Positions 116-16,826 of a stretch of 58,589 bases of DNA are shown here, one piece after another. Every line of letters starts with the position of its first letter. Position 1 is the first letter of the stretch. The stretch comes from Actinomycetes bacterium. Lineage in GTDB: Bacteria; Actinomycetota; Acidimicrobiia; Acidimicrobiales; JAJZXF01. Made by a program: the position numbers and the translations under genes. The stretch covers positions 1 to 58,589 of the forward strand of contig JAJYWA010000004.1 of the NCBI GenBank assembly GCA_021791755.1, read 5' to 3'. The notes under the pieces were generated by a model. It worked only from the letters and a program-made list of their open reading frames with translations, was not told the DNA's origin and did not search any database.

Positions 116-1042
116 GTGTTCTCCAGTAGGCCTTCGCATACATCGAACCGTGGCCGTGAACATGACGTTCTGCAGCGTCCGGGTACGCTTGGCACGAGGT
201 TGTCGGCGCCGTCTGTGAACGATGGAGATGATCTTGCCGAGCTTCGTATGAGGCGGAGAAGTCGGCCAATAATCGCTGCTGCTTCGGTGCTCCTGATCGT
301 GTTGTCCATAGCGGTTGCCAGCAACCTCTATGAGCAGGCTGGTGCTCGACGATCGGTGCTCGAGGTGGCTCGCGTCATTGGCTTGGGCAGCCGCATCGCG
401 GCGGGGGACCTAGTGGATGTTCGCATATCTGTCGGGAGTGGAGTGGCGGCTGTTCCGTCGTCTGCTGCGTCACAGGTGGTAGGGCGTCGTGCGGGAGTGA
501 CGGTTCCTCAGGGGAGCCTTCTCGTGTGGGGCGATGTGGCTCATGGCTCGACAGTTGCTCCAGGGGATGCGATCGTTGGCGCTTCGCTGAAGTCTGGGCA
601 GTTACCCGCAGCCGGCGTTACAAGTGGAGAAACGGTTGAGGTCATCTTGGCGCCGCCCGCAGGCCAGGCTGTACAGCTATCCGGCGCTTCCGCGGGCGGC
701 TTTTCTCCTTCGTCGAGCACGGTTGTTTCTCAAGGCCAGAGCCAAGGCCAAGGGTTGGCAGGAGTAGGAGGAGAATTTGCTGGCAGCGCCCTTGTCTTGA
801 CTCGCGCGGTCATCGTTGGCGTGGGCGCTTCCACCTCGCAGGCGGGCCTTGGTGGCGCGATCCCGAGCGCAGCTACCGGTCAGGCGGTCTCGTTGGAGGT
901 CCCACTTTCTGATGCCCCGCTGATCGCGGCCGCTGCTGCCGCAGGGCAGGTAGCGGTTGTGGTTGTCGCTGGGCGTCAGGGTTCTTCACCCCAAGGTCGC
1001 TCGACGTTGGCTGCTGGTGGCAAGCGGAGAGCATCCGGATGA
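116..1042 (+). CDS. SAF-domain Flp pilus assembly protein (CpaB/RcpC-like); start may be ATG 248
   Basis: TM segment (IIAAASVLLIVLSIAVA), then SAF-like 'VLEVARVIGLGSRIAAGDLVDVRI...VVGRRAGVTVPQGSLL' and RcpC-like 'GETVEVIL...AVSLEVP'; lies upstream of tadA. Confidence 0.75.
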   Translation: MFSSRPSHTSNRGREHDVLQRPGTLGTRLSAPSVNDGDDLAELRMRRRSRPIIAAASVLLIVLSIAVASNLYEQAGARRSVLEVARVIGLGSRIAAGDLVDVRISVGSGVAAVPSSAASQVVGRRAGVTVPQGSLLVWGDVAHGSTVAPGDAIVGASLKSGQLPAAGVTSGETVEVILAPPAGQAVQLSGASAGGFSPSSSTVVSQGQSQGQGLAGVGGEFAGSALVLTRAVIVGVGASTSQAGLGGAIPSAATGQAVSLEVPLSDAPLIAAAAAAGQVAVVVVAGRQGSSPQGRSTLAAGGKRRASG

Positions 1043-1314
1043 GCGCACGTGAAGCAGAGGCCGTTGAGTGTGACCCGTCTGGAGCCGACTGATGTCGCGT
1101 CGAGAGCGAGGGCTTCTGCTGTGCGGAGTGCTGGGAAGGTGTTCGGCGTACCTTGTTCGGCGGACGGAAGAATGCCGTGACTGGTGAGCTCGACAGCTCG
1201 CACGGTCTGTCCCAGGCGACGGACCTCCGAGGTATGGAATGCCTGGTGAGTGAGCATCGTGCAGGCGGCAACGCCAGCTGCGAGGTGGTGGGCGACAGGG
1301 ACATCGAGGAGAGC

Positions 1315-2772
1315 ATGGAGATAGATCGTGCGCGCCTGGCGCCGTCATGCGACCCCGACCTGGTGAGGGTTATTCAGCGCGAGGTGGCAGAGCAGCTTTC
1401 GCGTGAAGGCGATGGCTTGGGTCATGCCGACAAAGAAGAGCTGTGCCGGCATCTCATTGCGAATGTTCTCCAGGGGCACGCAGCCGATCGCCTAGGCGCC
1501 GCAGTCGCGCCCATGGACCCCGAGCAGGAGAGCGCTATCGGTGAGGCGGTATGGGCTCGCATGTTTGGTATGGCTGGGCTCCAAGTCTTGATTGATGATC
1601 CGGAGATCGAGAACATCAATATCAATGGGTTCGACCGGGTGTGGGTGAAGTACTCGGACGGCTCCAAGGTCCGTGGACCGGCTGTTGCCGCCTCTGACGC
1701 GGAGATCGTCGAGCTCGTCAGGATCGCCGGCAGGAATCTTGGAATGGCTGAGCGGAGGTTTGACGCCGCCAGTCCGGAGCTAGATCTGCGGCTACCGTCC
1801 GGACACCGGCTCTCAGCGGTCATGGAGGTTACGGAGCGACCGGTGATCTCGGTTAGGCGTCACCGTCTCGTCGATGTGACGCTGGAGGATCTCGTATCAC
1901 TGGGCACCTTGAATGGGGAGCTCGCGTCATTCCTGGGTGCGGCGGTTCGCGCGCGAAAGAACATAGTCGTTGCAGGCCCGATGAACGCCGGCAAGACGAC
2001 ACTTCTCCGAGCCCTGGCCAGTGAGGTGGCGGCGCGGGAGCGTATCGTCACCATCGAGCAATCTCTGGAGCTCGGTCTCGACCGGCTGCCAGAACGCCAT
2101 CCGGATGTGGTCGCGATGGAGGCGCGTGAGCCCAACAGCGAGGGGGCGGGAGAGATCACCATGGCCCGGCTGCTCCGTCGGGCCTTGCGAATGGATGCCG
2201 ACAGGGTGATCGTCGGAGAGGTGCTCGGCGACGAGATACTGAACATGCTCAACGCTATGAGCCAAGGTCGCTCTGGGTCGATGTGCACGATTCACGCTGA
2301 CTCGTCGGCCGGTGTGTTTCGCCGGATGGCGTCCTATGCGGTGCAGGCGGCTGAGCGGCTGCCGCTCGAGGCGACCAACCTGCTGATTGCAGGGGCAATT
2401 CACTTTGTCGTGTACGTATCGCTGATCGATGATGCGCTCACGTCTACGTATGGACCGGTGCAGGCTGATGTGCGACGTGACGCAGCTGAGACGATCGATC
2501 AGTTTCATGCGACCCACCGGAGCACGCTTCGTAGGGTTGTCACCTCAGTCAGGGAGGTAGTGGACGCCGATGGTCCGATGGTCGTGTCAAATGAGATATG
2601 GCGGCCGTCGGGAAGTGGGATCGCCGCGCCGGGCGTTCCGATGCGGACAGAGACCTATGACGAGCTCGTGGCCCACGGGCTCGGGCGACCACCGGACAGC
2701 GCTGTTCAAGAAGGCTGGGGAGCCATCGGTCTCGACGAAGGCCCGCGAGGTCTTCGAAGGGTTGTCCGGTGA
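1315..2772 (+). CDS. tadA: TadA/CpaF pilus assembly ATPase (VirB11 family); ORF is open from 1153
   Basis: Walker A GPMNAGKTT, TIEQSLEL box, ALRMDADRVIVGEV, GSMCTIHA; GAGGAG before ATG 1315. Confidence 0.93.
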   Translation: MEIDRARLAPSCDPDLVRVIQREVAEQLSREGDGLGHADKEELCRHLIANVLQGHAADRLGAAVAPMDPEQESAIGEAVWARMFGMAGLQVLIDDPEIENININGFDRVWVKYSDGSKVRGPAVAASDAEIVELVRIAGRNLGMAERRFDAASPELDLRLPSGHRLSAVMEVTERPVISVRRHRLVDVTLEDLVSLGTLNGELASFLGAAVRARKNIVVAGPMNAGKTTLLRALASEVAARERIVTIEQSLELGLDRLPERHPDVVAMEAREPNSEGAGEITMARLLRRALRMDADRVIVGEVLGDEILNMLNAMSQGRSGSMCTIHADSSAGVFRRMASYAVQAAERLPLEATNLLIAGAIHFVVYVSLIDDALTSTYGPVQADVRRDAAETIDQFHATHRSTLRRVVTSVREVVDADGPMVVSNEIWRPSGSGIAAPGVPMRTETYDELVAHGLGRPPDSAVQEGWGAIGLDEGPRGLRRVVR

Positions 2773-3761
2773 TCCCGGCGCCCGCTCTCGTTGCTGGGAT
2801 TGGCGTCGGTGGCGGATTATCGGCTCTTCTTTGGAGCTGCGCACCGAGGTCCACGCCCGGGTCCGCAGAGTCACGTCCTAGCCTCGAAGCAAGCAACGTA
2901 GAGCGGGTGGGCTTTGGGGCGCGTCTGAGCACAAGACCAACAAGAGAGCCCCGATCTTCGATGTCGTCAGCAAGGTGGATGAAGAAGAGGAGCCGCCGGC
3001 CTGTCTCACGGCTTCACTGGCAGGAGGTCGCAACCGCGTTCGGGGTCGCAGCCCTGGTCGGGGTTATCACTGGTTGGCCTGTAGCTGCATTGCTTGCTGG
3101 GTGTGCCGTAGTAGGTCTCAGGGCGATCTTCGGCGCGACATCGTCGGCTGTTGTTCCGAAGAAACTCGAAGCGATTGCCTCGTGGACGGAGATGCTTCGC
3201 GACACGCTCGTCGCAGCGTCGGGCTTGACGCAAGCGATCATCGCAACGGCAGAGACGGCTCCCCTTGGTCTACGCGCCGAGGCTCGGCGTCTTGCAGCTC
3301 GTCTTGATGCCAGGGTTGCTATGAAGGATGCGCTCACCGCGTTTGCCGACGAGATTGGAGATGCAACCGCCGACGTTATTGTCGCGAGCCTCCTGATGGC
3401 TAGCGAAGAGCGTGCGCAGCGGTTGTCGGATCTCCTGGGTGCACTGGCGCGCTCTGCTCGTTCAGAGGTGTCAATGCGTCTACGCGTCGAGGCAAGCCGT
3501 TCTTCTGCGAGAACCGCGGTGCGCACCGTGGCAATAGTGTCGATCGGCTTCATGGCGCTGCTCTTTGCTGCATCCCGTCAATACCTGGCTCCGTACGGTA
3601 CGGTCGCTGGAGAGATGGTGCTGGCACTGGTGGGTGTCCTGTACGGGCTGGGGCTCTTTCTCATGACCCGAATGGCTCGTCCGGAAGTTGCGACACGCCT
3701 TCTTGCGCCTCCCACTCGCAGCTTGGTTTCCAGCGCCGGGATGGACGCGGCGGATGCTTGA
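2769..3761 (+). CDS. tadB: TadB (T2SS-F family) membrane platform protein
   Basis: 'LEAIASWTEMLRDTL..ASGLTQAI', T2SSF-type helices, two C-terminal TMs; GTGA overlap with tadA. Confidence 0.85.
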   Translation: MIPAPALVAGIGVGGGLSALLWSCAPRSTPGSAESRPSLEASNVERVGFGARLSTRPTREPRSSMSSARWMKKRSRRPVSRLHWQEVATAFGVAALVGVITGWPVAALLAGCAVVGLRAIFGATSSAVVPKKLEAIASWTEMLRDTLVAASGLTQAIIATAETAPLGLRAEARRLAARLDARVAMKDALTAFADEIGDATADVIVASLLMASEERAQRLSDLLGALARSARSEVSMRLRVEASRSSARTAVRTVAIVSIGFMALLFAASRQYLAPYGTVAGEMVLALVGVLYGLGLFLMTRMARPEVATRLLAPPTRSLVSSAGMDAADA

Positions 3762-4677
3762 AGCGGTTCTCGTCGGTGCGGGTGTCGCGCTGGGTCTTAT
3801 TGGCCTGTTTCGGTCAGTCTGGCCGATTCGTCCGAGCCTGGGCTCGCTTGTTGGCAATCGCGGGCGTGGCGATACAGAAGGACGGGGGATCGGTCTTCGA
3901 GCTATGGCTGATCCGTCGATGAAGGCCGCATCGGGTGGGGTGAGGGGCGAGGTTGGCAGTCGTGCTGCGCGGGTGCTTGTTGCCCACGGCTGGGACCGAT
4001 GGGTGCCGGCCGCCGACTTGGCGATAGCTGAGCAGACTATGCCCCGACTTTGCGCCAAGGCGTTTGAGGACATGTTCATCTTCGGATGTCTACCGGTGGT
4101 TCTATGGGCGCTCAGTATCGCGGCGGGGTCGCCGGTCGCTCCGGGGGCAGTTGGATGGGCTGTGCTCCTCTGTGCCCTCGGTGGTCTTTTCGTGCCGTTG
4201 CTCGAGATGAAGTCGCGTGCTCGAAAGCGCCGCGACCATTTCCGACGTGCGGTTGCTGCGTTCTTGGGCATGGTCGTCCTGGCCCAAGCTGGGGGGATGG
4301 GCATCGATGGCGCCCTTTCAGCATCCGCAAGCATTAGCGCCGACTGGGCGTTCGCGCGGATGAAGAGGGCTTTGGACGCGGCGAGGCATCTCAGGGTTAC
4401 CCCCTGGGATGCCCTCGGAGCATTGGGCGCCGAAGTTGGCGTCATGGAGTTGGCTGAGGTTTCGATGCACATAGCGCTAGCTGGTAGCGAAGGGGCCAGA
4501 GTGCGTGAATCTCTCGCAGCGAAGTCGGCTTCGCTGCGTCGTCAGGAGATGGCGCGTCTAGAAACGAGAGCTAACGCCGTAACGGAGAAAATGTTCCTGC
4601 CAGGCGTGATCTTGATGGTTGGCTTCCTCGTGTTCATAGGCTATCCGGCGTTCGAGAGCGTTCTCAGGGTTACGTGA
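3754..4677 (+). CDS. tadC: TadC (T2SS-F family) membrane platform protein
   Basis: 'AGGMGIDGAL...PWDALGALG...GSEGARVRESLAAKSASLR...EKMFLP'; follows tadB. Confidence 0.85.
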   Translation: MLEAVLVGAGVALGLIGLFRSVWPIRPSLGSLVGNRGRGDTEGRGIGLRAMADPSMKAASGGVRGEVGSRAARVLVAHGWDRWVPAADLAIAEQTMPRLCAKAFEDMFIFGCLPVVLWALSIAAGSPVAPGAVGWAVLLCALGGLFVPLLEMKSRARKRRDHFRRAVAAFLGMVVLAQAGGMGIDGALSASASISADWAFARMKRALDAARHLRVTPWDALGALGAEVGVMELAEVSMHIALAGSEGARVRESLAAKSASLRRQEMARLETRANAVTEKMFLPGVILMVGFLVFIGYPAFESVLRVT

Positions 4678-4764
4678 ATGGTGATCACGGTGAATAGGCG
4701 AGCCCGAATAACTCGGATCCCACGGCCAAGTAGCGAGCCTCGTCTGCAACCGGCTGCTGATCGA

Positions 4765-4802
4765 TCTATCTAGAAATTGAAGTTAATAACGAAAGGAAAG
4801 GT
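4765..4802 (+). promoter_or_regulatory. AT-rich putative promoter and strong RBS for the major pilin
   Basis: tctagaaattgaagttaataacgaaaggaaaggt-ATG is markedly AT-rich against the GC-rich background; AAGGAAAGG SD. Confidence 0.45.
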
Positions 4803-5033
4803 ATGAAGCATAGCAACATAGTTGGGAAGCTGGTAGAACTTCTGGATGGTCTCTGGGTGTTCGTGCCATTGTGGGCACTGTTGCGGTGCAAGCTGGAGAT
4901 GTCGCCGAGTGACGAGCGCGGTGATGTTGCTGAGAAGGTTGTGGTGGTCGCACTGTTCGTGGCAGCCGCAGTTGCATTGGGCTACATCATCTACGGCAAG
5001 GTGGTCGCGGCCGCGAATGGCATCAACCTCTAG
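4803..5033 (+). CDS. flp: Flp-type major pilin
   Basis: 76 aa; DERG|DVAE prepilin-like cleavage site then a hydrophobic helix; between tadC and tadE; strong RBS. Confidence 0.8.
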   Translation: MKHSNIVGKLVELLDGLWVFVPLWALLRCKLEMSPSDERGDVAEKVVVVALFVAAAVALGYIIYGKVVAAANGINL

Positions 5034-5047
5034 ATTGGTGTGGAGGA

Positions 5048-5521
5048 TTGGGTTCAGTGCACCGCGCAGCCTCGTTGCCAGGCCGGTTCTCGAGTGCGAC
5101 TGTTCCACGGCGCCGTCGAGGGTCGCGACGTTGGCGGTCGGAGCTCGGTGACGAGCGGGGAGATGTCGCGGAGTCCGTTTTGGTGTTTCCCGTCTTCTTC
5201 CTGTTCATGCTTGTAAGCCTTCAGATGGCGATGTGGGCTCACGCGGTCCAGGTGGCACAGAACGCGGCCGCCTCTGGTGATCAGGCAGCCCGGGCATTTG
5301 GGGGATCAGCCGCACTGGCGGTCACGCAGGCGGAGCAGTTTATCGAGGTGGCCGGTGGTACATCGGATCTTTCTAATGTCCAGGTCAGCGTGAGCTATCT
5401 CCCGGGTGGAATGTCCAAGGTCGAGGTCTCGGGAGATGCTGAGTCGATCTTGCCCTGGTTCAGCGCGCATGTGTCTGCTGTTCGGCTTGGTCCGATCCAA
5501 CAGTTCAGGAGCTCGGGATGA
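5048..5521 (+). CDS. tadE: TadE-family pseudopilin
   Basis: DERG|DVAESVLVFPVFFLFMLVSLQMAMW...AAASGDQAAR. Confidence 0.85.
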   Translation: MGSVHRAASLPGRFSSATVPRRRRGSRRWRSELGDERGDVAESVLVFPVFFLFMLVSLQMAMWAHAVQVAQNAAASGDQAARAFGGSAALAVTQAEQFIEVAGGTSDLSNVQVSVSYLPGGMSKVEVSGDAESILPWFSAHVSAVRLGPIQQFRSSG

Positions 5522-6045
5522 AGGTGCAGTTGCAGGCATGCGCCGGGCGCTGGCGCCGTCTACCGGTTGCTTCTATTGCCCGACGGCGAAGGCGGACCGA
5601 ATTGGATGGGTATTGCTCATGCGACCTGGGTCGACCGGAGCCTCCGAGTGGTGGGAGCGCTGCAGTTGAGCTGGTTGTCCTCGCTCCAATTCTCATGTTG
5701 TTCATAGTGTTCATCGTGATGCTTGGTCGTCTCGCCGCTGCGAGGTCGGAGGTGGTCGCGGCTGCTCGTACAGGTGCACAGGCTGCCGTGGTTTGGGGTA
5801 CGCCAGGTCAGGCAGCCTGGGCAGCGGACGCAAGTGTGTCGGTAGAGCTTCTTCAGCATCATCTGAGGTGCTCGAGAGCGAACGTTGGCGTAGACACGAG
5901 CAACCTCCGTCCCGGGGGTTCAGTAAGGGTTTCGGTCTCCTGCACCATGTCGATGGCCCAGTTGGCGATGCCTGGCATGCCGGGCTCGAAGACGATCGCG
6001 GCATCGGTCGTTGCTCCCGTCGGGATGTACCGGAGCGTTAGTTGA
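5518..6045 (+). CDS. tadE: TadE-family pseudopilin
   Basis: G|SAAVELVVLAPILMLFIVFIVMLGR...AAARTGAQAA; ATGA overlap. Confidence 0.87.
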   Translation: MKVQLQACAGRWRRLPVASIARRRRRTELDGYCSCDLGRPEPPSGGSAAVELVVLAPILMLFIVFIVMLGRLAAARSEVVAAARTGAQAAVVWGTPGQAAWAADASVSVELLQHHLRCSRANVGVDTSNLRPGGSVRVSVSCTMSMAQLAMPGMPGSKTIAASVVAPVGMYRSVS

Positions 6046-6064
6046 GCGGCGTGATCGTTGGGAC

Positions 6065-6544
6065 ATGGACTGGTCGTCTCTCGTGCGGCTTGGAGGCCGC
6101 GCTCTCATGAGGAGGCGATCTGGGGCCACATCTGGCCACGTTGTCGAACGGGGATCGTTGACTGTGTTCACCGCGGTGGTTGCTGTCTCGCTCTTGTTGG
6201 TCAGCGGGCTCGTGGTGGACGGGGGAGCTTACCTCGCCGCGCAGCGGTCAGCCGTGGATCTAGCGGAGCAGGCTGCTCGGCAAGGTGCGGACCAAGTGTC
6301 GCAGCAGTCGCTGAGGAACGGCGTCGTGGAGGTGTCGGCGCAACGAGCTGTAGCCGCGGCGGAGTCGTACTTGGAGGCAGCTGGCCACCCGGGCACGGCG
6401 TGGGTGAGTGGTCAGACGGTGTACGTATCAGTGGCATACAGGAAACCGACCATCTTGCTCGAGGTGATGGGGTTGCGCGAGCTCGATATCCGGGCAACGG
6501 CAAGCGCCCAGGAGGTACACGGGATCGTAACTGTTGATCCCTGA
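6065..6544 (+). CDS. TadG-like pseudopilin (start 6065 or 6107)
   Basis: ERG|SLTVFTAVVAVSLLLVSGLVVDGG...AEQAARQGA. Confidence 0.82.
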   Translation: MDWSSLVRLGGRALMRRRSGATSGHVVERGSLTVFTAVVAVSLLLVSGLVVDGGAYLAAQRSAVDLAEQAARQGADQVSQQSLRNGVVEVSAQRAVAAAESYLEAAGHPGTAWVSGQTVYVSVAYRKPTILLEVMGLRELDIRATASAQEVHGIVTVDP

Positions 6545-6722
6545 AGGTCCGATCGTCAATTCCGAGGCGCCAAGCTCACGGGATCCACGGTTGTAACCGC
6601 ACCTTGATGGGGATGGATAAAGCACCAACGGCGCGTACCAAGCGTCCGCAAGACAGGGCAGAGTCCTGGAGCGAGCTAGGCGACCACGAGGACATGACTG
6701 TGAAGAGGAGGTCACAGCAGCG

Positions 6723-9700
6723 ATGACGAGACTTATTTTGCCGCGGAGAAAGCTAGCGACGATCTTGTCTGCGGTTGGATCATTAACGGTGTTGAGCGCT
6801 GTGCTTTGCGGTTCTCCGATCTTGTTGGTGATGGTCATGCCGTCACCGATCCCAAGTAGGTGGCCGTCCCCTTCGGACCTGGCGTCCAGGGCACTGTCTC
6901 CGCCAGCTATGCACGTGTGGCTATCGGTTCTCAGCGTCCTAGCGTGGTTGGCCTGGCTTTGGTTCCTGGCGGTCGTGACCATTGAAGTGGTGGCCGCAGC
7001 AAGAGGGATGAAGGCGCCGCGAGTGCCCGGGGTGCGCGTCGGCCAGAACCTTGCACGTTGGCTGGTGGGCTCGATTGTCTTGGTCGTCCTGCTTCACGCA
7101 GAGGGCCAGTGCCTGACGCACGGCCGTGTGGCAGCTCAACGGGAGCCAGCGTCGATCTCGGCGGTCTTGGCCAGTTCGGACGTCTCGACAGGACCAGCCG
7201 TTGTGATGGAGGTGGCGAGAACGAGAAGTACTGTTGGTGGTCCATCTGAAAGCTTTCCGGCGCCTCGCCGACATCAAGGCGCCCCCACCGATCTGAGCAG
7301 CGATCCTGAGGAGAACGGCCAGAGCTCTGTTCGTGCAGCGACGACGGCCCGAACCACTGCATCAACCACTGCATCAGAACAGAAGCCTCAACCGAAGCCC
7401 GGAACCTACACGGTGCAGTCCGGCGACACACTCTGGTCGATCGCCGCTCGCGAGCTCCACGATCCTCTTCGGTGGACCGAGATCGCTCGTCTCAACTATG
7501 CGAGACCCCAGTCGAACGGTGGGGCTCTTACGGCTTCGCACTGGCTACAGCGTGGTTGGGTACTGGCCATGCCGCACGCCGAGCCTGCTTCGGTGGGGCG
7601 CGCGGGCTCGTACCAGACTGTGTCCAACCAGGCGCCTCACGCAGTGTCGTCGCCTAGCGCACCTGATGTACAAGACGACCGTCACGGGAGCGGCTCCACG
7701 AAAGATGAGATCGAAGGTTGCTCGAACACGGTGGTCGCTGGCCCGCAGGATACCCGCGCCGTGGGCGCTCCCTCGGGAGGAGGACGCGGCGTGCCGCTCG
7801 TTCCCATTGGTGGGAGCTTGTTGGGCCTGGGAGTGGTTGCCACGCTCGAGCACATGAGAAGGGCTCAGCAAAGGCATCGTGGTAGAGGCCGGAGCATCAG
7901 GCTTCCTGATGCGGAGCTCCTCGAGACAGAACGCAGGCTGAGATCGAGCGATGATCGCGACGCCTCGAAATTGATCGCGTGTGGCCTTGAGGTTCTCGGA
8001 TCGTCCTTGGCGGAACATCCGGAAGGAGCGACCCCAGCTGTGATTGGCGCGAGGTTGTCTGGGACGTTTCTCGAGATCATGGTAGATAGCCGGTGCTGGT
8101 CGCCTCGGGCAGTTGTTCAGCCTTTCGAGGCGCGTCACGGTAGTGGCTCGTGGTTCGTGGAGCGCCGAAACCTTGCAGTCATGGCGAACGGCGCCGGGGG
8201 AGATCGAGATCGGAACAGGTTGAAGGGAGCTGCTTTCCCCTCGTTCGTTTCGTTCGGCCGGGATCCCGCGGGCCTTGTTCTCGCCAACCTCGAAGCAGCA
8301 GGATCCCTGGCTGTGTCAGGTCCGAAGGAGCTCGTCGTGGGGACGCTTGCAGGCATGGCGCTTGAGCTGGCCAGCTCACCATGGGCGTACTGCGCTGACA
8401 TATGTCTGGTCGGCCTCGGAGCGAAGATGCCCGTTCTCGAACGGATCACCACGTTCGAGAGTGTGTCGCAGGTGATTGCCCATCTGGAGGTCCGTGCAAG
8501 CGACTCGGAGAAGCTCCTCAAGGCGAGCGGGTTCAGCCGTTGTGATTTCGCCAGGATCTGTTGTGGTGATGCCGATTGGGAGCCAACGATCGTGCTTTGT
8601 GCTCAGGACCTATCGCGAAGCGAAGCGGACGAGCTGGTGGAGGTGGTTGGGGATGGCTCGCTCGGCCTCGCTGTCGTGATGGCCACAGAAGAGAGCTCTG
8701 CGCGCTGGACCGCCGAGATCATCCGCGGCAAGCTGCGAATCGAGCCGCTGGGAGTAACGGTGCATCCCCAGCCTCTAGGCGAGCACGACCTGGGATCTAT
8801 ATGTAGGTTGCTGGACCTTGCTGCCAATGTGAGCGATTCGGGCGTCCCGGAGCCTGTGGAGGCATACGGGAGCCCGTCTGGACCACAGGGAGCCGCACAT
8901 CACTCGAGTGTGGGGGCGCCAGGGAGTGTCGGCAGCGGTGAGCTGAACAGAGCCACGGGCAGCGTCCGAAGTGACGCTGAGAGCACGTATCCTACAGCGC
9001 GGCTGGTTCGAGCGGTGTCTGGTGTTTTTCCCCAGGCTCGCAGGCGCGCTGAGGTTTCAGCAGCGCCAGATCCGGGTACGGATTGCGAGCTCGAGGGCAT
9101 CTCGAAGGCCACACACATGCTCGCGATCATTGACGATCCTGGCTCGCTCGCCACGCGCACACCCGCCCAGGCCCAGGTCCAGGATCAACCGACCCCGGAC
9201 AAGCCGCTCCAGGGTGAGCCAGCTGGTGGCGACCAGCGCGACCTAGGCACTCCGGCGTCGTGCGCACCGGTCTCGGTGTGCCTCGCTACGGCGAGGGCGC
9301 GGCTGCCGGCCGGTGATCTCGCGGGCAGTCTGGAAGATGGCGGCTTTGGGCATGAGCGCCAGACAGAGCGCACGCCTGAGCAGAGCGCGCCCTTGCCAAG
9401 AGGTGACGGCGGTGGGCCGCTTCGTGCGAGCGGGCGAAGGGAGGCGCCCGCGCGCACCGATGTGGAGGTCGAGGTGGCTGTTCTCGGGCCCGTTGAGATC
9501 AGGGGGGCAGAGAGGCCAACGAGACGCGCTGGGGCCACAGAGTTGGTTGTGTACCTAGCGATGCATCGTTCCGGTGTAGCCAGCGACGCGTGGGCGGCGG
9601 CGATCTGGCCCGATCGCGTCATGGCGCCATCAAGCCTCCATTCGACGGCATCCGAGGCTCGCCGTGCGCTCGGCCGCTCGAAGAGCGGCCAGGATCACCT

Positions 9701-10211
9701 GCCGCGCCAGCATGGGCGGCTCCAGCTGGCGTCCACGGTAGGAAGTGACTGGCAGCGGTTTCTTGATCTCGCAGGCCAGGGATCGCCAATCTGCCTCGAA
9801 CAGGCTATGTCGCTCGTACGGGGTGAAGCGTTTCAAGGCTTGAGAGCCATTGACTGGATCGTGCTCGAGGGCTTTGTCGCGAACATCGAGGCGCAGGTGG
9901 TCGATGTCGCGACAGGTCTTGCGGAGCACTTCTTAGGGGTGGGGGATGCATCTGGCGCCGAGTGGGCCGCGAGGCAGGGTCTCAGGATAAGCCACTACGA
10001 CGAGAGGCTATACCGAGTGCTCATGCGTGCAGCCGACGCTGCTGGCAACCCGGCGGGAGTGGAGAGGGTCATGGACGAACTGACGAGCCTTGTCGCCGAG
10101 GAGGTTGAACCTTACGACATGGTCCATCCGGAGACGGCTGCCCTTTATGCGCGCCTTGCCCGCGGTAGGAGGGCCCCGGCGTTTCAACAACGGGCTGCGC
10201 AACGCGCGTGA
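6723..10211 (+). CDS. Membrane protein: 3 TM - LysM - TM - FtsK/EccC-like relic domain - wHTH/BTAD (SARP-type) regulator
   Basis: LysM YTVQSGDTLWSIA (~7401-7575); TM ~7790-7850 followed by an Arg-rich stop-transfer; 'VEVAVLGPVEI...ELVVYLAMH...WP' wHTH; BTAD-like 'AMSLVRGEAF...AARQGL...YDERLYRVLMRA...HPETAALY'; GAGGAGG SD. Confidence 0.85.
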   Translation: MTRLILPRRKLATILSAVGSLTVLSAVLCGSPILLVMVMPSPIPSRWPSPSDLASRALSPPAMHVWLSVLSVLAWLAWLWFLAVVTIEVVAAARGMKAPRVPGVRVGQNLARWLVGSIVLVVLLHAEGQCLTHGRVAAQREPASISAVLASSDVSTGPAVVMEVARTRSTVGGPSESFPAPRRHQGAPTDLSSDPEENGQSSVRAATTARTTASTTASEQKPQPKPGTYTVQSGDTLWSIAARELHDPLRWTEIARLNYARPQSNGGALTASHWLQRGWVLAMPHAEPASVGRAGSYQTVSNQAPHAVSSPSAPDVQDDRHGSGSTKDEIEGCSNTVVAGPQDTRAVGAPSGGGRGVPLVPIGGSLLGLGVVATLEHMRRAQQRHRGRGRSIRLPDAELLETERRLRSSDDRDASKLIACGLEVLGSSLAEHPEGATPAVIGARLSGTFLEIMVDSRCWSPRAVVQPFEARHGSGSWFVERRNLAVMANGAGGDRDRNRLKGAAFPSFVSFGRDPAGLVLANLEAAGSLAVSGPKELVVGTLAGMALELASSPWAYCADICLVGLGAKMPVLERITTFESVSQVIAHLEVRASDSEKLLKASGFSRCDFARICCGDADWEPTIVLCAQDLSRSEADELVEVVGDGSLGLAVVMATEESSARWTAEIIRGKLRIEPLGVTVHPQPLGEHDLGSICRLLDLAANVSDSGVPEPVEAYGSPSGPQGAAHHSSVGAPGSVGSGELNRATGSVRSDAESTYPTARLVRAVSGVFPQARRRAEVSAAPDPGTDCELEGISKATHMLAIIDDPGSLATRTPAQAQVQDQPTPDKPLQGEPAGGDQRDLGTPASCAPVSVCLATARARLPAGDLAGSLEDGGFGHERQTERTPEQSAPLPRGDGGGPLRASGRREAPARTDVEVEVAVLGPVEIRGAERPTRRAGATELVVYLAMHRSGVASDAWAAAIWPDRVMAPSSLHSTASEARRALGRSKSGQDHLPRQHGRLQLASTVGSDWQRFLDLAGQGSPICLEQAMSLVRGEAFQGLRAIDWIVLEGFVANIEAQVVDVATGLAEHFLGVGDASGAEWAARQGLRISHYDERLYRVLMRAADAAGNPAGVERVMDELTSLVAEEVEPYDMVHPETAALYARLARGRRAPAFQQRAAQRA

Positions 10212-10283: not shown

Positions 10284-10826
10284 ATGCTCATCAACGGCGT
10301 GCTTCGTGAGAAGATGGGCTTGCTGGATCTGCGGGTAGACTCGGCCTTCGACCGGCTCAGGGGGAAGCGAAGTCTGGATGTGCTCTTCTATGGCGCGTCA
10401 GCGATTGGCGACCATGGGGCCCTCTGGGTGCTGGTCTCTGTCCTGCGGGGCGTGCAACCCAAGCATCGCCTGCGTGCAAAGCGCACGATCGTTGCCGCTG
10501 GCATAGAGTCCGTCTTCGTGAACCTGCTCTTGAAGTCCCTGTTCAAGAGGAGTCGGCCATCAAACGATGGTCCGCACCCGCTCCCGTTGCGGATACCGCG
10601 AACCAGCAGCTTCCCGAGTGGGCACACCACTGCCGCCTTCTGTGCGGCGACGCTGCTTGCTGAAGGTGATCCCCTGTGGCCGGCGTACTATGCCATGGCA
10701 TCAGTGGTGGCCGCGAGCCGTATTCATGTTCGGCTTCACCATGCCTCGGACGTGCTTGCGGGTGTTGCTCTCGGCTCCGCGCTGGGGCGCATAGGCAGGC
10801 GGCTGGTCCCGCTGGAGCGCAGCTGA
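10284..10826 (+). CDS. PAP2-family phosphatase
   Basis: Motifs KSLFKRSRP, SFPSGH, SRIHVRLHHASD. Confidence 0.92.
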   Translation: MLINGVLREKMGLLDLRVDSAFDRLRGKRSLDVLFYGASAIGDHGALWVLVSVLRGVQPKHRLRAKRTIVAAGIESVFVNLLLKSLFKRSRPSNDGPHPLPLRIPRTSSFPSGHTTAAFCAATLLAEGDPLWPAYYAMASVVAASRIHVRLHHASDVLAGVALGSALGRIGRRLVPLERS

Positions 10827-12960: not shown

Positions 12961-13193
12961 GAAGACGCAGGTCGGCGCTGACCAAGGCCGCTGGCGACTC
13001 TTGCCGCCATGAGCCGCTTGCCACTACCTGTGTGATCATAGACTCTAGCGTGGCTATCGGTTCCGTGCGCCTGCGTGTCGTGGTGAAAACGCTCAGCGAT
13101 CCGCTGGCGGCTTTCCTTCGGCGGGGTGGCCAACTGCTGGAGCATCTATGAGCGATACAGAGCGCATGGATGTACGTCTGGTAGAGTGTTGTC

Positions 13194-13811
13194 GTGAACC
13201 TGACACAGTGGGCCCGATCACAAGGTGTGCATCCGCAGACCGCCTACCGGTGGTTTCGCAACGGGACCCTGCCTGTCCCGGCAGTCAGAGTAAATGCTCG
13301 CACGGTTCTGATATCCACCGAGACCATTCGGGACACTGACCGCCAAGCGCTCGGTCTCTACGCGAGGGTCTCCTCTCATGACCAGAGAGGTGACCTGGAC
13401 CGCCAGGTGGCGCGTCTGTCGGAGTGGGCGGCCAAGGAAGGCCATGTCGTCGTTCGCGTCGAGGCCGAGGTCGGCTCGGGGATGAACGGCTCACGGGCGA
13501 AGCTGCGGAGGCTGCTCGCAGATCCCAAGGTGACGACCGTCGTCGTCGAGCGCCGTGACCGTCTTGCCCGCATGAACGCAGAGTTGGTGGAAGCAGCCCT
13601 GGGCGCCCACGGGCGCCGCCTGGTGGTCCTCGACGAAGAAGAGATCGACGACGACCTGGTGAGAGACATGACCGAGGCGCTAACCAGCTTCTGCGCTCGG
13701 CTCTACGGCCCTCGTTCGGCGCGCAACCGGGCCATCAAGGCGCTCAACTGCGCCAAGCACGACGTTGGACCGGCGGCGCTGTCTGAGCCTAGTGGGAAAC
13801 TTTGTAGATGA
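13194..13811 (+). CDS. tnpA: IS607 TnpA serine recombinase (N-terminal HTH plus resolvase domain), intact
   Basis: MNLTQWA...GVHPQTAYRWF; YARVSSHDQRGDLDRQ; EVGSG; RDRLAR; DDLVRDM...SFCARLYG. Confidence 0.96.
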   Translation: MNLTQWARSQGVHPQTAYRWFRNGTLPVPAVRVNARTVLISTETIRDTDRQALGLYARVSSHDQRGDLDRQVARLSEWAAKEGHVVVRVEAEVGSGMNGSRAKLRRLLADPKVTTVVVERRDRLARMNAELVEAALGAHGRRLVVLDEEEIDDDLVRDMTEALTSFCARLYGPRSARNRAIKALNCAKHDVGPAALSEPSGKLCR

Positions 13812-15437
13812 GCAGGCGTGGACCGGCGTTGCGCACGCTGGCCGAGACCTTCGTGGTCGCTCCTCCTCGTGGGGCGCGGGTGCGCGCCCGCCTGTTCGTC
13901 AGCGATGCCGACGATGGTGTCCTCGAGGCGCTCGGGGCCCATCTCGGGCGCCTGGCATCGAAGGACCTGTCCCGGCGAGCGGCCGAGGGCGCTCTCGGGG
14001 CCAAGGCCAGAGCGGAGTCGCGCCCGGGGCCGCAAACGAGAGCTCACGGCCAAGTCGAGCTCTCGCTGGGCGGGGGCGATCACCAGGTACAGTGCGGACG
14101 CCTACGGCCTCGCCAAGCGCAACCTCGTCACCGAGCGAAAGTCGCTCATGGCGCGAGTCGCGAAGATCAAGGGCCGGGTGTCGCTCGCCCCGGGTGAGAC
14201 CAAGGGCAAGCGCCACGGCTGTGGGAGCGCTGCCGAGCGCTTCGAGAGGCAGATGCGCCGCCAGGCGCGCTCCGCCCGCCTGGCAGTGGTGGAGGCCTAA
14301 CTGTCCTCCGGGCATCTCCGCATCCGCCGGGGCGGCAAGCGCCTGGCCCGGAACTGCCAATACCTCTAAGCCGCAGTTCAGACCGCTGAGCAGTGGCGGT
14401 CCGAGTGGACCGCTGAGCGGTTCTTCGTCGCCGCTGACAGAGAGGCGGACAAGGCGTGGGGCAACGAGACCATCCGCTGGCGCCACGTCGAGGGGTGGTG
14501 GAGGGATCAAGCTGCCGGCGCTGCTCGCCAGCCTCGCCAACCGACCGCACGGGCGCTACCGCATCTCCTGCGCTCTCTCCTGGTCGCATCGCGGAGACGA
14601 GGTGGTCGCTCAGGCGATCAGCGGAGCCATCCGTTACGACATCCATCTGGATCCGGACAAGGACCGTTGGCGCTCCGACGCTTCCTGGAAGACCAATGCC
14701 GTGGCTCTCATCATCCTGGCCCAGCTCCGGCGCGGACCGGTGGTGGCGCGGTCGACCTGAACGTCGGGCGCCTCGCCGTGGCGGTCCTCGACCCTTCTGG
14801 AGACACGGTGGGGGCGCCGGCGACGATTCCCCTCGTCACAGACGGGCTCCCGTCTTCTACCCGCGACGCCAGGATCAGTGACGCCATCTCCCAGGTGCTC
14901 GCCATCGCCAATGGGCGCGATGCCGGATCGGTCGTGATCGAAGACCTCTCCTTCGACGCCTCACGCTCCGAGGGCCGGGAGCACACCGGCAACCGCCCCT
15001 CGAGGGGTAAGAGGGGCAAGACCTTCTGCTGGCGCATCTCCGGCCTGCCGACCGCCAAGCTGCGCGACCGGCTCACCCAGATGGCCGCCAACGCCGGGGT
15101 GGCGGTCATCGCCGTCGGCCCTGCCTATACCTCGAAGCGGGGCGCCGAGCACTGGCTCGCTCCACTACGAGAGCAACACCCGCACCAAGACCTGACCGGT
15201 CATCACGCAGCAGCGGTGGCGATCGGCAGACGCGGGTTCAGACAGCGACTCCGGAGACGGGGCAGGAGCGCTTGGACCTCACCAGAGGATGGGGGACGAG
15301 ACACTGCGAGTGTCTCCGAAGGAGACCATGCCGGTGAGCTCTACCGGCCTGGTCGAGCCCGTAGCGCCCAGGGGCCCGAAGCAAATGCAGAGCGCGAGGC
15401 TGGGATCGAATGGCCTGTCGCCGGCAGGCTGAGGTAA
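13808..15437 (+). pseudogene. tnpB: TnpB-related RuvC protein broken by about 3 frameshifts and in-frame stops
   Basis: Pieces in different frames: LRTLAETFVVAPP..; RKRELTAKSSSRWAGAIT..VVEA* (TAA 14298); RGGKRLAR..WGNETIR; IKLPALLASLANRPHGRY; AVDLN (RuvC-I), VIEDL (RuvC-II), PAYTSKRGAEHW, HHAAAVAIGRR. Confidence 0.88.
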
Positions 15438-15548
15438 GGCGCCCGTAAGACCGCAGCGCTCACCGGGAGCGGAGGGGCCCAGGAGACCCAGGACCGTTCG
15501 GGGCCTCCTATTGAGCGAATATCATGATCGCTCAGTGGTTAGGAACGG
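15438..15548 (+). ncRNA. Predicted omegaRNA/reRNA scaffold region at the IS607 right end (5' boundary unknown)
   Basis: Position expected from TnpB biology; hairpin tgagcga-N9-tcgctca (15512-15534); aggaacgg end. Confidence 0.4.
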
Positions 15549-16429
15549 TATGCCTCTTGGTCCTGGTGATGCTCGGGGTTGAGCAGTCGGGTCTCGGCGA
15601 GGTTTTCGGTGAGGACTGCGTCAGCGAGCCGTGGCCACCGCAGCGCTGCCCACGCACCGAAGTCGTGGTCGCTCAATGACACGCATGCAAGGTTTCTGTC
15701 AGGGTCCACCCAGATGAAGCTGCCTGAACGACCGAAGTGGCCGAAGGTGCTCTCCGAGCAGAGACCACCGGTCCAGTGAGGGTGCTTGCTGTCTCGGATC
15801 TCGAGTCCTAATCCCCAGTCGTTGGGCGACTGATGCCCGAACCCGGGCAGGACGCCGCTCAAGCCTGGGAACGCTACCCGTGTCGCCTCGGCAAGGGTAG
15901 CTGGAGCGATGGCCTGGGGGGACAAGAGCTCTCGTGCCAGTAGCGCAAGATCTGCGAGGGGGCCTGACATTCCTGACGCCGGGGACCCTTCGAGCGTGGT
16001 GGACGTCATCCCGAGTGGTGAGAGCACAGCCTCGTCGAGGTATACGCCGAAGGGTACGCCGGATTGGGTGGCTACGTGCCTCGCGAGGAGATCGAAACCG
16101 AAGTTCGAGTAGATGCGCCTCCGACCCGGCGCCGAGAGGACCCGATCGTCGTCGGTCGCGAGGCCGGATGCGTGCGCAAGGAGGTGCCTGACGGTAGAGC
16201 CTGGCGGGCCGCACGGTTCATCCAGGTCTACAGTTCCTTCCTCGGAGGCGACGAGGACTGCGAGCGCTGTGGCGACCTTCGTCACCGAGGCCCACCTCAG
16301 CGGGACGTCCATAGAACCCTCCCAGTCGATGACGCGTGGCTCGCCTTCATGCGCTGACACGACAGCCGCTGCCACTGTGGTCGCTGGCCAGGTTTTCACC
16401 TGGTCGAGGGCCCGTGCGACGTTTATCAC
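15539..16429 (-). CDS. Serine hydrolase, beta-lactamase family (ORF is open to 16438)
   Basis: SxxK (ASVTK), LLAHASG, YSN, FGHFG; stop codon lies inside the IS607 end; TAGAGT-N7-GTG supports start 16429. Confidence 0.9.
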   Translation of the reverse strand: MINVARALDQVKTWPATTVAAAVVSAHEGEPRVIDWEGSMDVPLRWASVTKVATALAVLVASEEGTVDLDEPCGPPGSTVRHLLAHASGLATDDDRVLSAPGRRRIYSNFGFDLLARHVATQSGVPFGVYLDEAVLSPLGMTSTTLEGSPASGMSGPLADLALLARELLSPQAIAPATLAEATRVAFPGLSGVLPGFGHQSPNDWGLGLEIRDSKHPHWTGGLCSESTFGHFGRSGSFIWVDPDRNLACVSLSDHDFGAWAALRWPRLADAVLTENLAETRLLNPEHHQDQEAYRS

Positions 16430-16655
16430 CAGCTTCACTCTAGCGGTGAGCCGGGCCTGGGCAAGGGAGCGCGGGCGAAGCTGGGATGGTGCGTGGGCAA
16501 CGGTGCGGCCGTCGGTTGCGCGCGGTCAGCGATCTGAGCGCGCAGTTCGGTGCCGATGCGGTAGTGCCATCAGCACGTGCCCGCGGTATGGTGGGCAAAG
16601 GCGACTGCAACGGCATGAGATGCGAGGTGACGACTGCGATGAAGCCGTGGTGGAG

Positions 16656-16826
16656 ATGAGCTCGAAGCTGAAGAGTGTGGGACGACAAGTGGCGAGCAAG
16701 CCGAGGCTGATCGGACTTGGGGTCTGGATCACCGCGTACGTACTGGGTGCAATGGGAATCGAGGCATTGCTGCGGCGCCGGAAGAGAGTGGCGGGTACGC
16801 GCGATGATCGCCAGTCGGAACGATAG
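16656..16826 (+). CDS. Small single-TM hypothetical protein (56 aa)
   Basis: GGAG before ATG; hydrophobic LIGLGVWITAYVLGAMGIEALL followed by RRRKR. Confidence 0.45.
   Translation: MSSKLKSVGRQVASKPRLIGLGVWITAYVLGAMGIEALLRRRKRVAGTRDDRQSER

Follow-up and report, generated by a model that had tools for sequence, protein, structure and literature searches.

The stretch of DNA analyzed here, which we call the window, comprises 58,589 nucleotides (nt) of a contig (JAJYWA010000004.1) from a bacterium of the order Acidimicrobiales. Near its start, on the + strand, lies a Tad/Flp pilus gene cluster (116–6544, delimited by Pfam matches and the reading of open reading frames [ORFs]), and a gap of 178 nt separates the end of its TadG-like gene at 6544 from a large gene (6723–10211, + strand) that encodes a membrane protein of 1162 residues, P0001, with a LysM domain, an FtsK-like middle domain, and a SARP-type module, as judged from the ORF, Pfam, homologs, and an AlphaFold2 (AF2) model. 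We found that in one Tad subtype this gene occupies the last position, which is conserved across Actinomycetota, and that phased direct repeats resembling a SARP binding site lie at the head of the operon in a subset of related loci, and we propose that P0001 may activate the operon to which it belongs.

The tad cluster and its last gene

The cluster encodes the Tad core (a TadA ATPase, TadB and TadC platform proteins, and TadE/F/G pseudopilins), with Pfam matches above cutoff to T2SSE, T2SSF (twice), TadE (twice), and Tad. Its genes, all on the + strand, specify a CpaB/RcpC-like (SAF) pilus assembly protein (116–1042), a TadA/CpaF-type secretion ATPase (1153–2772; T2SSE, 4.6e-31), a TadB-like platform protein (2769–3761; T2SSF, 8.5e-7), a TadC-like platform protein (3688–4677; T2SSF, 8.4e-7), a Flp-like prepilin candidate of 76 residues (4803–5033), two TadE-like pseudopilins (5048–5521 and 5518–6045; TadE, 4.5e-7 and 3.2e-9), and a TadG-like pseudopilin (6011–6544; Tad [PF13400], 4.1e-5). 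The CpaB-like protein matches RcpC (0.0015) and SAF (0.0074) below their cutoffs, is 40% identical to the CpaB of a related locus (L009; tblastn), and is syntenic across related loci. The ATPase is the sole TadA match in the window's genome and scores 210.8 bits against NCBIfam TIGR03819, under that family's cutoff of 373. The prepilin candidate, an ORF read from the sequence with a hydrophobic core after G/DVAEK, gave no family match; it is 78% identical to its counterpart in the closest related locus (L001), and there are tblastn matches at the equivalent position in many loci. A gene for an A24 prepilin peptidase is located elsewhere in the genome (C124:51389–51724; 44.1 bits). In 56 of 56 relatives, and likewise in L001, cpaB and tadA are separated by a 290-residue TadZ-like gene (with a deviant P-loop). 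We found no match to it in the window, where the cpaB–tadA gap spans 1043–1152, or in the rest of the 89% complete genome, and the Tad machine of this organism may be incomplete. A preliminary description of the window, made from the sequence, had placed these ORFs and read the content of the cluster as we do, but the operon begins upstream of the window, on another contig.

The same description had divided P0001 into three N-terminal transmembrane (TM) helices, a LysM domain, a fourth TM helix, a cytoplasmic domain, a linker, and a winged helix-turn-helix (wHTH) with BTAD, and Pfam, hydropathy, and the AF2 model bear out this layout. Kyte-Doolittle peaks mark TM1 at residues ~15–39, TM2 at ~66–89, and TM3 at ~106–124 (together residues ~15–124, 6765–7094), where the model has helices at 11–38, 62–93, and 104–130; TM4 peaks at ~357–377 (7791–7853) and is followed by an invariant Arg-rich motif, MRRxQQRHR. 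Between TM3 and TM4 lies LysM (residues 228–285, 7404–7577), with disordered flanks; Pfam matches it at residues 229–258 (3e-5; 24.3 bits, cutoff 20.9), and AF2 models a β-α-α-β fold at 228–282 with a predicted local distance difference test (pLDDT) score of 82–94. When the positive-inside rule is applied to the counts of lysine and arginine (4 in the N-terminus, 2 in loop 1, 5 in loop 2, and 7 in the stretch after TM4), the LysM segment (125–356) is predicted to be outside, and the N-terminus, loop 2, and everything after TM4 are predicted to be cytoplasmic. LysM and the SARP module would thus face opposite sides of the membrane, as had been proposed.

The full-length AF2 model (mean pLDDT 69.6) was made from a 60-row alignment (A1) of P0001 and 59 of 120 listed homologs. 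It is confident at 366–705 and 912–1147, corresponding to the cytoplasmic middle domain (7854–8837) and to the C-terminal SARP module (residues 912–1148, 9456–10166), and pLDDT falls below 50 at 128–220, 290–357, and 711–911. The last of these segments is a disordered linker (8853–9455) that is much shorter in homologs such as P0009. Many residues are invariant across the aligned homologs in LysM (V231, L237, W238, W251, N258, W279, and P284), in the motif that follows TM4, and in the wHTH/BTAD region. NCBIfam holds no equivalog for P0001 and gave sub-threshold matches only to LysM families.

The middle domain had been described simply as a folded cytoplasmic domain; the fold is confident, but its nature had been missed. 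Folded alone from a 22-row alignment (A2; model pLDDT 85.1), it matched the FtsK motor (2ius_A) with a Z score of 15.7 and a root-mean-square deviation (rmsd) of 3.2 over 218 aligned residues, and it also matched EccCb1-D2 (Z 14.0), the EccC5 DUF domain (8rin; Z 13.4), and the conjugation coupling protein TcpA (Z 12.9), whereas generic RecA-like folds scored below these FtsK-type matches (Z at most 10.2). None of the 60 aligned homologs has GK[ST] at the position aligned with the P-loop, and the Walker-B-like strand reads WDPxVVxCGP, with no acidic pair. Because the modeled domain combines an FtsK/EccC-like fold with the absence of Walker motifs, we conclude that it is an FtsK/EccC-like pseudo-ATPase.

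The resemblance of P0001 to the FtsK/SpoIIIE/TraB translocases extends to an N-terminal membrane anchor, a RecA-type FtsK fold, and a C-terminal wHTH, but P0001 lacks Walker A and B, has a single domain of this type, and carries a SARP-type wHTH in place of a γ-domain. The DUF domain of EccC is likewise a degenerate ATPase domain adjoining the membrane.

In the C-terminal module, BTAD (PF03704; residues 1024–1130, 4.9e-7, 30.6 bits, cutoff 22.1) directly follows the wHTH, as it does in the SARP family, and the OmpR-type wHTH of that family can be recognized at the level of the fold only. Residues 913–1144 of the model superpose on residues 8–253 of EmbR (2ff4_B) with Z 15.5 and rmsd 4.3 (226 aligned residues, 22% identity), and the module matches AfsR in a transcription-initiation complex (8k60_I) with Z 15.2. 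The putative recognition helix, SLHSTASxARRxLG, is invariant among the 60 aligned homologs.

Distribution of the gene and its linkage to tad loci

A word-based protein search returned 172 relatives of P0001 at E ≤ 0.001, nearly all of them from Acidimicrobiales metagenome bins and variously labeled, where they bear names, 'DNA-binding SARP family transcriptional activator', 'LysM peptidoglycan-binding domain-containing protein', and 'BTAD domain-containing putative transcriptional regulator'; relatives in the ESM Atlas gave a matching picture. Among GTDB species genomes, 187 stretches encode a relative, and we analyzed the best 80 (individual loci bear L numbers) by tblastn with the window's Tad proteins. 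The genes cpaB..tadA..tadG lie upstream, in the order and on the strand seen in the window, in 68 of these 80 Acidimicrobiales loci. Five loci are cut by a contig end with the nearest tad genes visible (L045, L057, L069, L072, and L073), six have almost no upstream sequence (L012, L024, L042, L052, L056, and L065), and in one (L050) the 10 kb preceding the gene contain no tad genes. The L050 gene (9899–12817), the sole full homolog that we found apart from tad, sits amid genes for an acyl-CoA dehydrogenase, a TrpD-like glycosyltransferase, and SurE, and the next gene (13165–16770) encodes an AAA_16-TPR-BTAD protein of 1201 residues. In the window, the large gene is followed after 73 nt by a PAP2 (undecaprenyl-diphosphatase-like) gene (10284–10826). 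Because this gene has a counterpart in none of the 80 related loci, it probably lies outside the system, and conservation of the cluster thus ends with the large gene.

A profile of the middle domain found matches in 100 of 401 Acidimicrobiales genomes (a tally that includes the unpublished G640 and G728) and, in an even sample of 401 Actinomycetota genomes, in 28 genomes and 18 of 249 genera (including G148). We examined the neighborhoods of 31 of the 33 phylum-wide places, the other two being the window itself and G148. At 23 of the 31, tadA-tadB-tadC lie upstream on the same strand; five are contig-cut, two of which still show tadE/tadG or tadC; and the three without tad genes consist of two short partial ORFs (242 and 182 residues) and one ORF of 710 residues. 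TadA was present in 330 of the 401 sampled Actinomycetota genomes (14 unpublished genomes included), and the top-scoring TadA matches were mostly those adjoining homologs of the large gene. As TadA is far more common than the middle domain, the large gene marks a subtype of tad loci: across Actinomycetota it is conserved at the end of that subtype, and it is not universal to actinobacterial tad loci.

Loci of the subtype also carry shorter or divergent versions of the last gene without a match to the middle domain, which indicates that the architecture is modular. The version in L145 (7351–10479; 1043 residues) retains the LysM region, and its middle and C-terminal parts have diverged; that in L146 (7269–9167; 633 residues) has the SARP module without the FtsK-like domain; and that in L148 (8011–9405; 465 residues) consists of the membrane part only. 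All three loci belong to the same TadA subtype and have the gene after tadG, and the contig of a fourth such place, L147, is too short to judge.

Relatives are also encoded in 184 plasmid records, 137 of them from Streptomyces and the others from Curtobacterium, Micrococcus, Cutibacterium, Microbacterium, and further genera. The two best-matching plasmids, a circular one from Microbacterium and a linear one from Streptomyces, share the order SAF, hypothetical protein, TadA, TadB, TadC, small ORF, TadE, TadE, TadG, large protein. The linkage to tad in the preliminary description is thus strong and persists between distant lineages, in Acidimicrobiales, across the phylum, and on plasmids. An equivalent order appears in a table of Cutibacterium acnes plasmid genes, in which PAGK_2369 is annotated 'LysM, BTAD' (PMC3666418); that table row is the sole mention of the large protein that we found, and a literature search that did not extend to subscription journals returned no functional study of it. 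The available sections of a later C. acnes paper cover the tad locus and a separate FtsK-like TraB homolog without mention of the large gene (PMC5696575). Micrococcus luteus has two chromosomal tad clusters that are needed for transformation, and these are described, in the part of the report available, without such a gene (PMC4322843).

Repeats at the head of the operon

The conserved block in relatives starts one gene ahead of cpaB, with a gene for a 283-residue protein (53 of 56 loci) that has no Pfam match (homolog L009:2732–3583). The window holds the 3' end of this gene (3–68, + strand), which encodes a secreted protein that belongs to no known family; read in frame 3, the first bases of the window encode MTTASSTRLRVEQIQSVNNDV followed by a stop codon, corresponding to the C-terminus of the L001 homolog. 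The body of the gene is ORF 1623–2699 of another contig, C147, and stops about four codons before its continuation in the window. We conclude that C147 directly precedes the window and that the operon opens on this contig. Along C147 come an ISL3 transposase fragment (6–854), an intergenic region, a lipoprotein-like ORF, and the first module gene.

We counted k-mers in the 430 nt that precede this gene in relatives, and the heptamer GCAAGGT was present in 25 of 64 loci, compared with 2 of 59 and 0 of 64 in control regions. Its copies are arranged as two or three direct repeats with a spacing of 12 nt, in some cases 11 nt, or of 23–24 nt when the middle unit is degenerate; this spacing is phased to the DNA helix and not to codons. 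We defined a relaxed triple (outer units with at most one mismatch, middle unit with at most two, spacing 11–12) and found it in 30 of the 80 loci and in 2 of the 80 reversed sequences. The triple lies upstream of the module on the operon strand in 28 of the 30. In L064 (a second site, 12424) and L076 (12758), relaxed triples also follow immediately where the large gene stops, with the same orientation, and might drive the next gene; in L041 the triple is downstream on the opposite strand. A motif-blind search for triple heptamers found them in 13 of 65 loci, with 0.2 expected from shuffled sequences, and 9 of the 13 were of the GCAAGG type.

To place the repeats relative to a putative promoter, we aligned 29 sequences (the 28 loci and C147) at their third repeat. 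In the hexamer beginning 8 nt past this repeat, A occupies position 2 in 25 sequences and T occupies position 6 in 26, with the two combined in 25, and no other offset gave such a hexamer in more than 3 of the 29. This signal played no part in the choice of the sequences. Six nt after the hexamer there is an (A/G)TG, whose T and whose G are each present in 21 of the 29. Actinobacterial −10 boxes follow TANNNT, many actinobacterial transcripts are leaderless, and the sites of SARP activators are heptameric direct repeats about one helical turn apart, the proximal repeat lying 8 bp from the −10 box. The candidate site at the tad operon is like these sites in that phased heptamer direct repeats abut a −10-like box, and it differs from them in its period, which is mostly 12 rather than 11 nt. 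C147 and L001 are two of the four exceptions to the 8-nt rule; both have an in-phase degenerate fourth unit (GTGAGCA and GCGAGCA, respectively), followed after 8 nt by (G/C)ATATT.

Within the 2.67 Mb of the window's genome, the exact tandem pattern occurs once, at C147:897–927 (three GCAAGGT units, period 12). Single heptamers number 571 in the genome, and the window itself has isolated copies only. The relaxed triple gave 2 matches in the whole genome (G000) and 6 in its reversed control, so that the relaxed definition is worthless genome-wide and only the exact pattern is unique. Among the 401 Acidimicrobiales genomes, the pattern GCAAGGT-N5-6-CAAG-N6-7-GCAAGG was found in 14, compared with 4 for the backwards control, and it occurred in 9 of the 100 genomes with the protein and in 5 of the 301 without it. 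In three of these five, the matches are non-canonical strings (a single string that recurs among members of a genus, or three identical copies found together in a genome). In all three genomes in which pattern and gene lie on one contig (G432, G442, and G558), the pattern is 9.5–11 kb upstream on the same strand. This tally is not an independent sample, because the genomes are kin and many of them also gave the 80 loci. One genome, G454, has GCAAGGT arrays of at least four units at three places (contigs C48, C87, and C147), none of them on the contig of the gene; its regulon may be larger, or its assembly may be fragmented.

Homologs from other classes and from plasmids have different recognition helices (FHTTVWRARQ, FNQTMSRARM, and FANVVSEARR, among others), and the lack of GCAAGGT triples at such loci (0 of 37, compared with 1 in the control) fits co-variation of helix and site without showing it. 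A de novo scan for triple repeats upstream of tadA in 26 distant or plasmid loci gave few matches and no obvious shared element. The gap between tadC and flp, which is often just 23–60 nt, yielded no common motif in 38 loci. Unrelated tandem repeats lie there, or at the start of flp, in L006, L069, L007, and L039: L069 has about ten copies of the 9-nt unit CAACCGAAC before or at the flp start, and L006 has four to five copies of a unit of 15–16 nt. About 100 nt downstream of the GCAAGGT repeats, several loci (e.g., L028, L030, L075, L077, and L070) have an inverted repeat, TTGCAC-N5-GTGCAA, often after AGTAG. The L070 version, TTGCAG-N5-CTGCAA, represents a compensatory change, and a degenerate form is present at ~1040–1060 of C147 (L149). 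The inverted repeat could be an operator for another regulator or a hairpin in the 5' untranslated region.

Possible functions of P0001

The interpretation that we favor, with a probability of about 0.5, is that P0001 acts as a SARP-type activator anchored in the membrane and exerts positive autoregulation on the tad operon. Its SARP module would bind the three (here perhaps four) GCAAGGT repeats, which lie one helical turn apart and abut the tad operon promoter, and the protein would activate its own operon while tethered to the membrane. Because the activator gene is the last gene of the operon, a positive feedback loop would result. The LysM domain would sit in the wall compartment, and the pseudo-ATPase would multimerize the protein or link it with the pilus motor and in this way bring several DNA-binding modules to the phased repeats. 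We infer, then, binding of P0001 to the repeats, binding of LysM to peptidoglycan for anchoring or sensing, and multimerization by or motor coupling through the pseudo-ATPase. Autoregulation is the simplest account of the data, because the only conserved DNA-binding protein of the module contains a complete SARP unit and the only conserved non-coding element at its head is SARP-like. The preliminary description had the SARP module switching genes that it did not specify; a role in transcription is indirectly supported by the phased repeats at the operon head, but the likely target is the tad operon itself.

P0001 resembles SARP activators (ActII-ORF4, AfsR, and EmbR) in its contiguous wHTH and BTAD, which superpose across both subdomains. 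SARPs are normally soluble and have an N-terminal DNA-binding domain, whereas the module of P0001 is C-terminal, behind four predicted TM helices, LysM, and the FtsK-like domain, has no sequence-level match to solved SARPs, and is linked to pilus genes rather than to antibiotic clusters. The one-component design, with a membrane-tethered OmpR-type wHTH and a sensor domain outside, recalls ToxR, TcpP, and CadC, and TcpP and ToxR control a type IV pilus regulon. Those proteins have an N-terminal wHTH, a single TM helix, and a C-terminal sensor, whereas P0001 has the reverse order and four TM helices, adds BTAD and a pseudo-ATPase, and has LysM in place of the ToxR-type periplasmic domain; it may therefore work like a ToxR-type protein without being a member of that family.

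Several observations weigh against autoregulation by P0001. Pfam Trans_reg_C does not match the C-terminal domain, and searches of PDB sequences with phmmer and with a 24-row profile of that domain returned designed helical repeats only and no SARP. The topology is predicted solely from hydropathy and the positive-inside rule. The genome encodes two other BTAD proteins and ten OmpR-type regulators that could bind the repeats. At the repeats themselves, the relaxed triple is upstream in only 28 of the 65 loci that have the first module gene, and the hexamer of C147 and L001 is 20 nt past the third perfect repeat, so that the spacing rule needs the degenerate fourth unit to be counted. Two genomes of one genus (G335 and G522) have an 11+11 triple and no detectable middle domain, three others (G454, G403, and G712) have pattern and gene on separate contigs, and, as described above, distant and plasmid loci lack GCAAGGT triples. 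Finally, strict conservation as the last gene throughout the phylum and an FtsK fold like that of a machine are features of structural components more often than of regulators.

These last two features lead to the alternative that P0001 is a structural or assembly component with no role in transcription, which we consider doubtful. LysM would fasten the Gram-positive Tad machine to peptidoglycan, TadA or TadZ would be scaffolded in the cytoplasm by the pseudo-ATPase together with the TPR-like BTAD, and another regulator would bind the repeats. The position at the end of the operon is kept from Acidimicrobiia to the plasmids of Streptomyces, Microbacterium, and Cutibacterium, FtsK/EccC-like folds are usual in the parts of machines that form rings, BTAD is built of helical repeats (the only kind of match obtained in the PDB searches), and the twelve other wHTH/BTAD proteins of the genome could serve the repeats. 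FimV, HubP, and TspA offer a precedent: they have LysM outside, one TM helix, a long low-complexity linker, and a cytoplasmic TPR domain, with no DNA-binding domain. P0001 shares with them the outside LysM, the membrane span, the linker, the helical-repeat module inside, and the association with type IV filaments, but it has four TM helices, an FtsK-like domain, and a wHTH, the homology that we see is confined to LysM, and FimV serves the type IVa pili of diderms. Against a purely structural role stand the invariance within the clade of the whole wHTH, including the putative recognition helix and the wing, its superposition on DNA-bound AfsR, and the presence of the module's only conserved DNA-binding protein beside a conserved candidate site of the SARP type.

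The FtsK/EccC-like domain and the strict last-gene synteny suggest that P0001, instead of acting as a sensor on its own, forms part of the pilus machine or is coupled to it. One elaboration, which as a joint claim we regard as rather unlikely, makes P0001 a transcription factor built into the machine and descended from an FtsK/TraB-type translocase: the base of the Tad apparatus would hold a ring or arc of the dead ATPase domain, LysM would pin the protein to the wall, the state of pilus assembly or activity or the strain on the wall would set the number of SARP modules that face the three to four repeats, and pilus function would thereby directly gate the positive feedback on the tad operon. 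The preliminary description had instead proposed a contact sensor, in which pili draw a cell or surface near, LysM detects the foreign wall, and the tethered or released SARP module switches genes. The predicted topology, the conserved LysM, the linkage to tad, and a long disordered linker that could carry a cleavage site agree with this proposal; we think it improbable, as LysM of a monoderm is permanently within the cell's own wall and the tad operon is the one candidate target that we identified. We consider it very improbable that P0001 is a membrane-anchored, wall-binding relic or accessory that handles DNA and stems from FtsK/TraB-type translocases, with a wHTH that reads clt-like direct repeats and a role in Tad-dependent DNA uptake or plasmid transfer and none in transcription. 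The best fold matches of the middle domain do include the FtsK motor and TcpA, homologs are common on plasmids (the 184 records, 137 of them from Streptomyces), a resolvase and a TraG/VirD4-like coupling protein are present in the window, with an ISL3 fragment beside the repeats, and Tad pili serve transformation in M. luteus (PMC4322843). The protein cannot pump DNA, however, because Walker A and B are absent in 60 of 60 homologs; its wHTH is of the SARP type and is joined to BTAD, which contacts RNA polymerase in AfsR complexes; a fixed 8-nt distance from repeat to hexamer would be needless for a transfer origin; and the M. luteus competence clusters, as described in the available part of the report, list no such gene (PMC4322843). 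A TraB-like role in DNA handling is thus unlikely, given the dead ATPase and the fixed distance to a −10-like box.

Tad pili drive adhesion, colonization, and DNA uptake in many bacteria, and to our knowledge the regulation and anchoring of Gram-positive Tad systems are largely unknown. Membrane-tethered wHTH activators and SARPs are each well known. The last gene of this Tad subtype unites them in a combination for which our literature search, outside subscription journals, returned no functional description: the membrane anchor is polytopic, LysM faces outward, the FtsK-like domain is a pseudo-ATPase, the SARP module is C-terminal, and the gene is paired with an identifiable candidate site. 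Four modules that are each well understood singly (LysM, membrane anchor, FtsK fold, and SARP) are joined in one gene. If the favored interpretation is correct, the SARP family would extend beyond soluble regulators of antibiotic clusters, actinobacterial Tad pili would have a first dedicated regulator, and the wall-facing domain and the pseudo-ATPase would suggest that this regulator is directly coupled to the envelope or the pilus machine. The prediction is concrete, as it pairs a defined DNA element (three GCAAGGT repeats by a −10-like box) with a defined protein domain. Were the transcription factor built into the machine as outlined above, it would couple transcription to the motor of a type IV filament in a manner that forms a class of its own, hitherto unseen, and would be the hallmark of a largely plasmid-borne Tad subtype of Actinomycetota.

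The remainder of the window is ordinary chromosome, with genes for SecDF, RelA/SpoT, HisS, AlaS, RuvX, YceG, and AroE. On the 3' side of the tad cluster it also contains a serine resolvase gene (13194–13811) and a gene for a TraG/VirD4-type coupling protein (23658–25175), and the ISL3 transposase fragment (C147 6–854) lies directly upstream of the GCAAGGT repeat element. These three suggest an island or the remnant of a mobile element, consistent with the many plasmid-borne homologs. Given the missing TadZ-like gene, the insertion-sequence fragment abutting the repeats, and the nearby resolvase and coupling protein, this particular locus may be somewhat decayed or mobile, which leaves the conclusions at the level of the family unaffected. 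The window also encodes, on the − strand (38082–41765), a PAS-GGDEF-EAL protein of 1227 residues; pili and adhesion are often under the control of cyclic di-GMP signaling.

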